The notes below the pieces were generated by a model. The model made no database searches and was not told the DNA's origin. It saw nothing but the letters and a program-made list of their open reading frames with translations. A program made the position numbers and the translations under genes. DNA of 63,411 bases, the filler included, from Hausera hauseri (lineage: Eukaryota), in the NCBI GenBank assembly GCA_046269625.1. It is 11 parts of 11 records of this genome, joined end to end, with 100 filler letters (N's around TTAATTAATTAA, not from the genome) between each part and the next. Parts side by side here need not be neighbours in the genome. Positions count along the whole stretch, not along the records: positions 42,760 to 46,790 come from JBJURY010806754.1; 10 more parts are not named here. The stretch is one strand, 5' to 3'. Positions 45,673 through 46,890 of this stretch are shown here, one piece after another. How positions within the stretch are numbered: the stretch's first letter is position 1; each line of letters begins with the position of its first letter.

Positions 45673-45708
45673 AGTAGTGTGAAAATGGAGGTTCTGCTCC
45701 ACCCCGGG
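45673..45708 (+). mobile_element. Polinton/Maverick-like left terminus (5'-AGTAGT...)
   Basis: AGTAGTGTGAAAATGGAGGTTCTGCTCCACCCCGGG vs the reverse complement of 1759-1795, AGTAGTGTAAAAATGCCGGTTCTGGAACACCCCCGGG. Confidence 0.7.
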
Positions 45709-45715
45709 ATGGGGT

Positions 45716-46218
45716 GAAGTAATCAATAAATTGATTCAAGATAACACTGGAAAAGATATAGAAAAGGCTTACCAGTCTATTTACCTGCCCCATGATGTCT
45801 TTGTTAGAAAAGTGAAAATGCTGAAGAAGCCCAAGTTTGAATGTAAGTAATACACACCTGTTTCTATGTGGGAACGCATGACTGATTCAGTCCCATATGA
45901 TCACCTGATTACTTTTGAGATTACTGATGTTTCCCAGCAGAGTGTCATATTGGTGATTTGACCTTGCAGAGGTTTGGTATTTTCATTAACTTCTTTGGGG
46001 GGGGTTAAATAGTCATCACAAATGTGTTTTTGTTAATCTTCAATGTTAGTTTTGGCTGTTTGTTTGAAATTCTCTTGTCCTTTGTTGCAGTGGGCAAACT
46101 GATGGAGCTCCATGGTGAGGGTGGTACCGGCACAGCTGTAAAGGCAACTGGTGATGATACTGGAGCCAAGGTGGAGAGAGCTGATGGTTATGAGCCCCCC
46201 ATCCAGGAGACTGTCTAA
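45716..46218 (+). pseudogene. RPS3A: 40S ribosomal protein S3a, 3' fragment (exons 45716-45842 and 46091-46218), vertebrate/teleost-like
   Basis: [88 protein letters not shown] intron; AATAAA at 46235; 5' part of the gene absent. Confidence 0.9.
45869..45936 (+). ncRNA. SNORD73: Intronic C/D-box snoRNA, U73/SNORD73-like
   Basis: Terminal stem TGGGAAC/GTTTCCCA, imperfect C box, guide TTCAGTCCCATATGA, terminal CTGA D box; vertebrate RPS3A introns are the known host of U73. Confidence 0.6.
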
Positions 46219-46890
46219 AAACATGAACAGATTTAATAAAAAATGTAAATGACCAACAAACTCTTGTTTCTTTTTTTACAAGTATAAAAACAATTTTTGC
46301 TTTACTATATCATTCATCACTGTAAAACATTCATGTTGTCTCTTGAAATGGGCCGATTATACTAGTGAGCCGTCATTATGTTTCATACAAAGGACTGCCT
46401 CGGCCGCATAGATATTTTACGAACGTATACCATAATAATGAACCTTCTCAGCATTCTGTGGAGAGTTGAAAATGATAATCAAGAAGCTCGCCCAGTCAAT
46501 ACTACTGTAATGTGTTTGTTCCCAGCGATGTGACTACCGAGCTTGACGATTTGATGCATCTATAGAGCTCTTGAAGTCGTATAACAAAAATCCAAAAAAC
46601 ATTTAGGTACGCATTCTAACGCATGATAAGGTCTCATTCTAATGCGAAATTAGAATATCTTGACGCGATGCTGGATTTCAATAAAAACAAATACTGCACA
46701 CAGAATATTTGGCTGTTTTCTAATGATTTACCATGATCACATGTTTAACCCATCTATCAAACATATAGGCTTCTGTAACTAGCAGATGGCNNNNNNNNNN
46801 NNNNNNNNNNNNNNNNNNNNNNNNNNNNNNNNNNTTAATTAATTAANNNNNNNNNNNNNNNNNNNNNNNNNNNNNNNNNNNNNNNNNNNN

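Follow-up and report, generated by a model that had tools for sequence, protein, structure and literature searches.

A mosaic RPS3A fragment behind an AGTAGT repeat end in the Hausera hauseri assembly is probably a contaminant chimera

The window, i.e. the whole stretch of 63,411 nucleotides (filler included) from the Hausera hauseri assembly GCA_046269625.1, consists of 11 contigs of 4.0-12.6 kb, which are joined with N-spacers and do not form one molecule. The RPS3A finding described here is confined to a single one of these short contigs, the 4,031-bp contig 8 (positions 42760-46790). In this contig, an AGTAGT head of about 40 bp is followed after 7 bp by a piece of RPS3A, whose intron contains a U73-like RNA and whose last exon precedes an AATAAA signal. 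Thus, the features listed in a previous sequence-only reading of the window (an AGTAGT terminus, RPS3A, an intron, a U73-like snoRNA and a polyA signal) are all present. The RPS3A piece matches PF01015 (Pfam, E=1.5e-8), and both of its exons match eS1 in the PDB. The left flank (42760-45672, minus strand) contains broken minus-strand reading frames and has a CpG observed/expected ratio of 1.26, and the CpG content of the unstranded right flank (46351-46790) is normal as well (1.0). By contrast, only 2 CpG were observed in positions 45716-46350 where 21.9 are expected. Thus, a vertebrate-like block lies between two non-vertebrate-like blocks. No Pfam match with E<0.05 was obtained for the right flank (six frames) or for the left flank (three minus frames).

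The other contigs of the window contain several features that are worth mentioning. A G-alpha(i)-like gene at 34031-34622 has introns of about 40-46 nt, and one of its exons (52 amino acids) does not exceed 59% identity over the full length to 150 listed representatives; the Atlas matches for G-alpha were generic G-alpha clusters. This gene and the transposon and polymerase remnants of the other contigs indicate that the organism is a non-vertebrate animal. The search with a 47-amino-acid exon of the window gave no match, and all eight of the window ORFs that were looked up were absent from the exact look-up. A degenerate (TCTCTG)n microsatellite of about 4 kb occupies positions 46891-50940; its contig-level CpG content is low and it may represent another block of vertebrate-like contaminant DNA. 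Moreover, a remnant of a piggyBac-type transposase is located at 59184-60161, and DNA-polymerase-B-like remnants, which were recognised by eye only, lie in different contigs at 56419-57908 and 60288-61564 and are 79-84% alike.

Contig 2 harbours a Gypsy element (5412-16703) with a single ORF of 3,763 amino acids, in which a Monjiviricetes-type fusion glycoprotein is placed between gag and the protease/RT/RNase H/integrase part and which ends in a long unannotated C-terminal tail. PBS-like and PPT-like sites at 5290-5315 and 16675-16700, also recognised by eye, suggest TG..CA LTRs for this element, although a comparison of its two ends revealed no repeat. An AGTAGT element at 4748 seems to be placed where the 5' LTR of this Gypsy element should start. 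As the element has PBS- and PPT-like sites of its own, which indicate TG..CA ends apart from the AGTAGT head, the head looks like a separate insertion and not like an LTR end.

The repeat end in contig 8 (45673-45715, plus strand) comprises a shared head of about 36 bp with a C/G palindrome at its end and 7 further bp. Related heads are present on the minus strand in contig 1 (1762-1795) and in contig 2 (4715-4748). The homology to these two termini that had been claimed in the sequence-only reading is borne out by 27/34 and 24/34 identical positions, respectively. A slightly longer alignment (45666-45708 against 1760-1802) contains 34 identical positions out of 43 (blastn, E=0.001), and the local score of 37 that the head reaches against the other contigs was matched by none of 200 shuffles, the highest score of which was 33. 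In view of these alignments, the head at 45673 can be regarded as a genuine end of a repeat family. The three heads share a stretch of about 35-40 bp with the C/G palindrome at its end, and beyond about 45 bp nothing is alike. Thus, the shortness of the head is not a truncation that is special to the copy at 45673, an explanation that could be ruled out because the similarity of every head to the others is lost after about 40 bp. The RPS3A piece indeed starts 7 bp past the end of the head similarity, at 45716. Tandem and inverted 21-bp units with the motif CCGGAAG are located just inside the 1795 head (1636-1757).

The class of the element is less clear than the existence of the family. All three heads open with AGTAGT (45673, plus strand; 1795 and 4748, minus strand), which fits the Maverick/Polinton end motif (AGT)2 or (AG)3, and (AGT)2 is described as the commonest end motif of Mavericks (PMC8097293). 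The term "Polinton-like" of the sequence-only reading is therefore a fair lead, as far as the cited account of the end motifs goes. However, a partner terminus could not be detected in contig 8. The search for inverted copies of the three heads in 45851-46790 gave scores of 15, 16 and 18; out of 200 shuffles, 126, 87 and 13, respectively, did at least as well, and the contig stops 1.1 kb past the head. Moreover, the 6 bp to the left of the head are not repeated in 45851-46790, the far end lying outside the contig; neither a right-hand terminus nor a target duplication was therefore detected within 940 bp. The Pfam searches of both flanks revealed no linked pPolB, integrase or capsid gene of a Maverick in contig 8, the polymerase-like remnants being located in other contigs of the window. 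In addition, a 19-base motif of the head had no exact match among viral contigs, the window contains no second copy of the RPS3A piece, and the right flank shows no DNA or translated similarity to the Gypsy elements of the window. As no second terminus or target duplication was detected, neither the membership in the Polintons nor a capture is supported. A 132-bp unit at 50948-51079 with a 28-bp inverted repeat starting with AGTAGT is a better Maverick-type end pair than the head at 45673. About 400 bp downstream of this unit, a P-loop-like start is found that is reminiscent of a Polinton packaging ATPase.

The RPS3A sequence itself consists of two parts that have to be considered separately. 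For the comparison at the DNA level, two teleost sequences were available: L056, a teleost RPS3A locus from a metagenome contig and the sole teleost genomic locus among the 80 loci kept of 110, and L081, a teleost-type RPS3A cDNA contig, which is one of four GTDB loci, two short ones of which match the N-terminus only. The cDNA (positions 1-358 of L081) lies inside a Paraclostridium genome assembly and is itself a contaminant.

The downstream part, part B, begins with the last intron of a teleost RPS3A gene (45843-46090, plus strand), which is 248 nt long, has GT..AG borders and aligns with intron 5 of L056 through the U73 gene. It is followed by the intact last coding exon, exon 6 (46091-46218, plus strand), which includes the stop codon and is percomorph-like, and by a teleost 3' UTR with CpG-free downstream DNA (46219-46350, plus strand; AATAAA at 46235-46240). 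Exon 6 is identical to L056 at 114 of 128 nt, an uninterrupted run of 30 nt in the 3' UTR is identical to L056 as well, and the similarity fades near 46270. Of 27 informative sites in exon 6, 19 side with L056 and 3 with L081. The best named protein match of exon 6 is from Nothobranchius (38/41 amino acids); a poeciliid donor, with 35/41 amino acids, is weakly disfavoured. None of 29 conserved residues of exon 6 is changed and no indel is present. The AATAAA signal is not followed by a poly(A) tail. Hence, the last intron, the last exon and the 3' UTR all correspond to the teleost locus L056, and the stretch from 45843 to about 46300 is recognisable as teleost genomic DNA. The fragment had been called teleost-like, which holds only from 45843 on; the upstream part (45716-45842) is non-teleost at silent sites.

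The intron of part B carries a degenerate SNORD73 (U73) copy at 45873-45931 (plus strand; RF00071, 30.9 bits, E=0.003), which does not reach the gathering score of 42. A deletion of 7 nt extends through its box C, and its guide stretch differs at two positions. The copy is located in an RPS3A intron and is aligned with the full-scoring SNORD73 copy in intron 5 of L056 (52.4 bits), to which it is orthologous by position. Because exon 6 contains neither an indel nor a change at a conserved site, relaxed selection on one snoRNA copy of a living fish gene would explain the decay of U73 no less well than a capture followed by decay. The fish part contains 2 CpG as compared to 12 in the homologous stretch of L056. 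Furthermore, the GC3 of exon 6 is 0.48 vs 0.64 in L056, and most of the differences in this exon are towards A/T.

The upstream part, part A (45716-45842, plus strand), is an intron-less RPS3A piece in which the end of exon 4 is fused to exon 5 (residues 183-224). As had been suspected previously, the first exon lacks the intron at the NKL/IPD position: there is none at 45732/45733, and L056 has an intron there. The intron is also implied for Chanos, Anabas and Sinocyclocheilus by proteins with intron-into-exon read-through, and an acceptor at this position occurs in several non-teleost loci. Thus, the NKL/IPD intron is missing in part A, yet the next intron is retained. The nucleotide identity between part A and the two teleosts is 88-91/127 as compared to 108/127 between the teleosts themselves, so that exon 5 resembles a teleost locus neither in its intron nor in its silent sites. 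Against L056, 79/110 nt of exon 5 are identical, as compared to 114/128 nt of exon 6 (Fisher p=8e-4). Where the two teleosts agree, part A differs from them at 15/25 third positions vs 10/83 first and second positions (p=4e-6). At third positions, the corresponding difference is 3/20 in exon 6 vs 15/25 in part A (p=0.003). The non-teleost differences of part A continue to 45841, two bases before the intron. The excess of third-position differences suggests that the template of part A was a functional RPS3A gene of a distant lineage that decayed later. A neutral decay of a teleost exon 5 could be excluded because it would not concentrate the changes at third positions.

The encoded residues point to a mammal. 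Eight of 42 conserved residues are changed in part A, as compared to 0/29 in exon 6 (p=0.018). The unusual substitutions that had been noted in the first exon are present, and part A carries seven replacements in addition to F211. Residues 193 and 211 are T and F, and the combination I/F or T/F at these positions was found in 52/56 named mammal proteins, in 1/25 named fish proteins (a sturgeon, I/F) and in none of five bird, reptile, amphibian and shark proteins. I193T occurs in 28 of 183 aligned relatives (18 named carriers, all mammals) and P206L in 15 of 183 (9 named carriers, all mammals); they are the two most recurrent replacements among these relatives, and both belong to the seven of part A. 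Some of these counts stem from a search that used this exon as the query, and mammalian pseudogenes abound in the database. From the codons, a T>C change in an ATTG context and a C>T change in a CpG can be deduced. According to PMC3747623 and PMC3766559, both contexts are hypermutable in human but lack this property in Drosophila, and the contexts of I193T and P206L would thus favour a decay within a mammalian genome. Part A contains no CpG in 127 nt, its third positions are A+T-rich (GC3 0.42) and its C-terminal end reads KMLKKPKFE as in vertebrates. At its silent sites, part A would presumably be much closer to the human RPS3A mRNA than to teleosts.

In part A, the removal of an intron, neutral replacements and mammal-type residues come together, as is typical for a processed pseudogene, and this part likely derives from a mammalian processed pseudogene. 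The sequence-only reading had named this origin of the first exon as an outcome that would speak against a capture. The intron-less structure, the non-teleost silent sites, the decay and the mammal-type residues agree with it; on the other hand, no exact mammalian pseudogene match was found, the best protein match being 37/42 amino acids. Mammalian RPS3A exon 5 DNA was absent from the results of the metagenome, viral, GTDB, plasmid and phage searches.

The two parts meet in a switch zone (45824-45842, plus strand) beside the splice donor. Its first 17 nt (45824-45840) are identical to L056, and the final non-teleost base is at 45841. Judged from the sequence, the RPS3A stretch is a patchwork of two sources, and parts A and B differ in origin and history. 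The piece appears to have no function.

The reading that we prefer, with a probability of about 70%, is that the mosaic RPS3A gene represents contaminant DNA, the pieces of which were combined with each other and with an invertebrate repeat end when the library was amplified or the reads were assembled. Part A would be a mammalian RPS3A pseudogene that had decayed inside a mammalian genome, the A-B join an overlap-type merge of homologous contaminant reads at the shared stretch, and the two outer joins chimeric fragments at a collapsed repeat end. The merging of homologous reads at a shared overlap is usual for amplification chimeras and overlap assemblers, and contigs from short reads tend to be mis-joined at repeat ends. 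The 29/29 conserved residues kept by exon 6, as in a present-day fish gene, also fit contamination, as do the failure to find a right-hand terminus or a target duplication and the earlier claims of vertebrate genes in schistosomes that were refuted or contested as contamination (PMC13155389). The sequence-only reading had left the choice between a capture and a chimera: the missing intron, the non-teleost silent sites and the mammal-type residues favour the chimera, and the capture is unsupported. However, a chimera requires three joins within about 650 bp, two of which are without visible homology, and only 7 bp separate the cargo from the head of a real repeat family. Moreover, the 17 nt identical to L056 are shorter than required for a de Bruijn merge at k=31, unless the donor fish matches at several more silent sites. 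The degenerate U73 and the low number of CpG in comparison to L056 could also mean decay after a capture, and the searches gave no exact pseudogene match for part A.

A true capture is unlikely. In this scenario, an AGTAGT element would have taken up the mammal-type RPS3A piece, which was later joined in register to RPS3A genomic DNA or pre-mRNA of a fish by homology-guided template switching or repair in an animal meeting both hosts. This would explain why the CpG-poor block (2 vs 21.9 expected) is embedded between flanks with a normal CpG content and why the cargo begins directly behind a genuine family head. A join in shared sequence is also reminiscent of the microsimilarity switches, including those between two parental genes, that are described in PMC5131818. 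However, the changes in part A at hotspots of mammalian genomes point to single-copy pseudogene DNA and not to an abundant mRNA as the source, exon 6 shows no decay, and a second end, a target duplication or a second copy in the window is lacking. Furthermore, the same gene would have had to cross between phyla twice, each time by a rare transfer.

It is quite unlikely that the entire RPS3A stretch comes from a single fish, namely as a partly processed or converted RPS3A duplicate with A+T-rich codons from an unsampled species, either as a contaminant or as a recent capture. The lower GC3 of exon 6 as compared to L056 with most differences towards A/T, the degenerate U73, the I/F pair in one sturgeon protein and a teleost DNA comparison of two sequences only are in line with such a source. 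However, the silent divergence changes abruptly at the border between the exons (15/25 before it, 3/20 after it), and the replacements are confined to part A. Moreover, a percomorph affinity is seen for exon 6 and the 3' UTR, which side with L056 rather than with L081 (19 vs 3 of 27 sites), and I or T at position 193 does not occur in any named percomorph protein that was checked. An RPS3A mRNA of the invertebrate itself, captured behind an LTR-type head and later recombined with fish DNA, is highly improbable as the source of part A: the intron-less structure and the A+T-rich third positions would be expected, but the Met of the vertebrate KMLKKPKFE end is found in 0/23 non-teleost loci among the best 25 of 81 scored, the best of these loci, whose phylum may not be that of the window, reaches 82/110 nt, and CpG is absent from the 127 nt.

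If the contaminant chimera is the correct reading, homologous contaminants of two vertebrates can merge into an in-frame, spliceable-looking gene in a parasite contig, and scraps of fish DNA in mobile elements need read support before they are interpreted. If the capture were true, the locus would be a germline record of two vertebrate hosts at one site behind a fixed element head and a rare transfer of non-transposon DNA from vertebrates to a parasite, a field in which the previous schistosome cases have been refuted or contested.

The locus can be compared to several known systems. Like Mavericks/Polintons, the head opens with (AGT)2; unlike in the elements described in PMC8097293, neither an inverted end match nor a 6-bp target duplication nor a Maverick gene was detected in contig 8. 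LTR-mediated retrocopies arise by template switches that are driven by microsimilarity, and some of these switches connect two parental genes (Tan et al. 2016, PMC5131818). As in these retrocopies, a truncated gene fragment is fused to the end of a mobile element, the pieces are joined where their sequences are alike, and the parent is not a single one. However, the retrocopies in this account derive from mRNA of the same organism and are flanked by LTRs, whereas the cargo in contig 8 is foreign and contains an intron and 3' flanking DNA. Indeed, a spliced mRNA as cargo is not what is seen here because only part A is spliced and part B has the intron and no poly(A). LTR sequence is likewise not present on both sides, the right flank being unlike the Gypsy elements of the window, and no element sequence was recognised behind the RPS3A cargo. 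Mammalian RPS3A processed pseudogenes such as mouse Rps3a3 (PMC7102943) resemble part A in the intron-less structure and the mammal-type residues, and part A shares recurrent replacements with mammalian RPS3A-like database proteins. However, part A is followed by a fish intron where a spliced last exon would be expected, and no exact match to it was found. No report on pieces of fish genes behind Polinton-like ends was found among the papers listed in the literature searches. Further precedents are the contested transfers to flatworms, i.e. the salmonid repeats, mouse albumin and MHC sequences in Schistosoma, and the claims of gene transfer from vertebrates to schistosomes have, according to PMC13155389, been refuted or contested as contamination. 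Like these claims, the RPS3A piece is an isolated, short vertebrate sequence that occurs in a single copy in a fragmented assembly of a parasite dataset. Unlike the Schistosoma sequences as described there, it is a mosaic of two lineages that are joined in register and abut an invertebrate repeat end.
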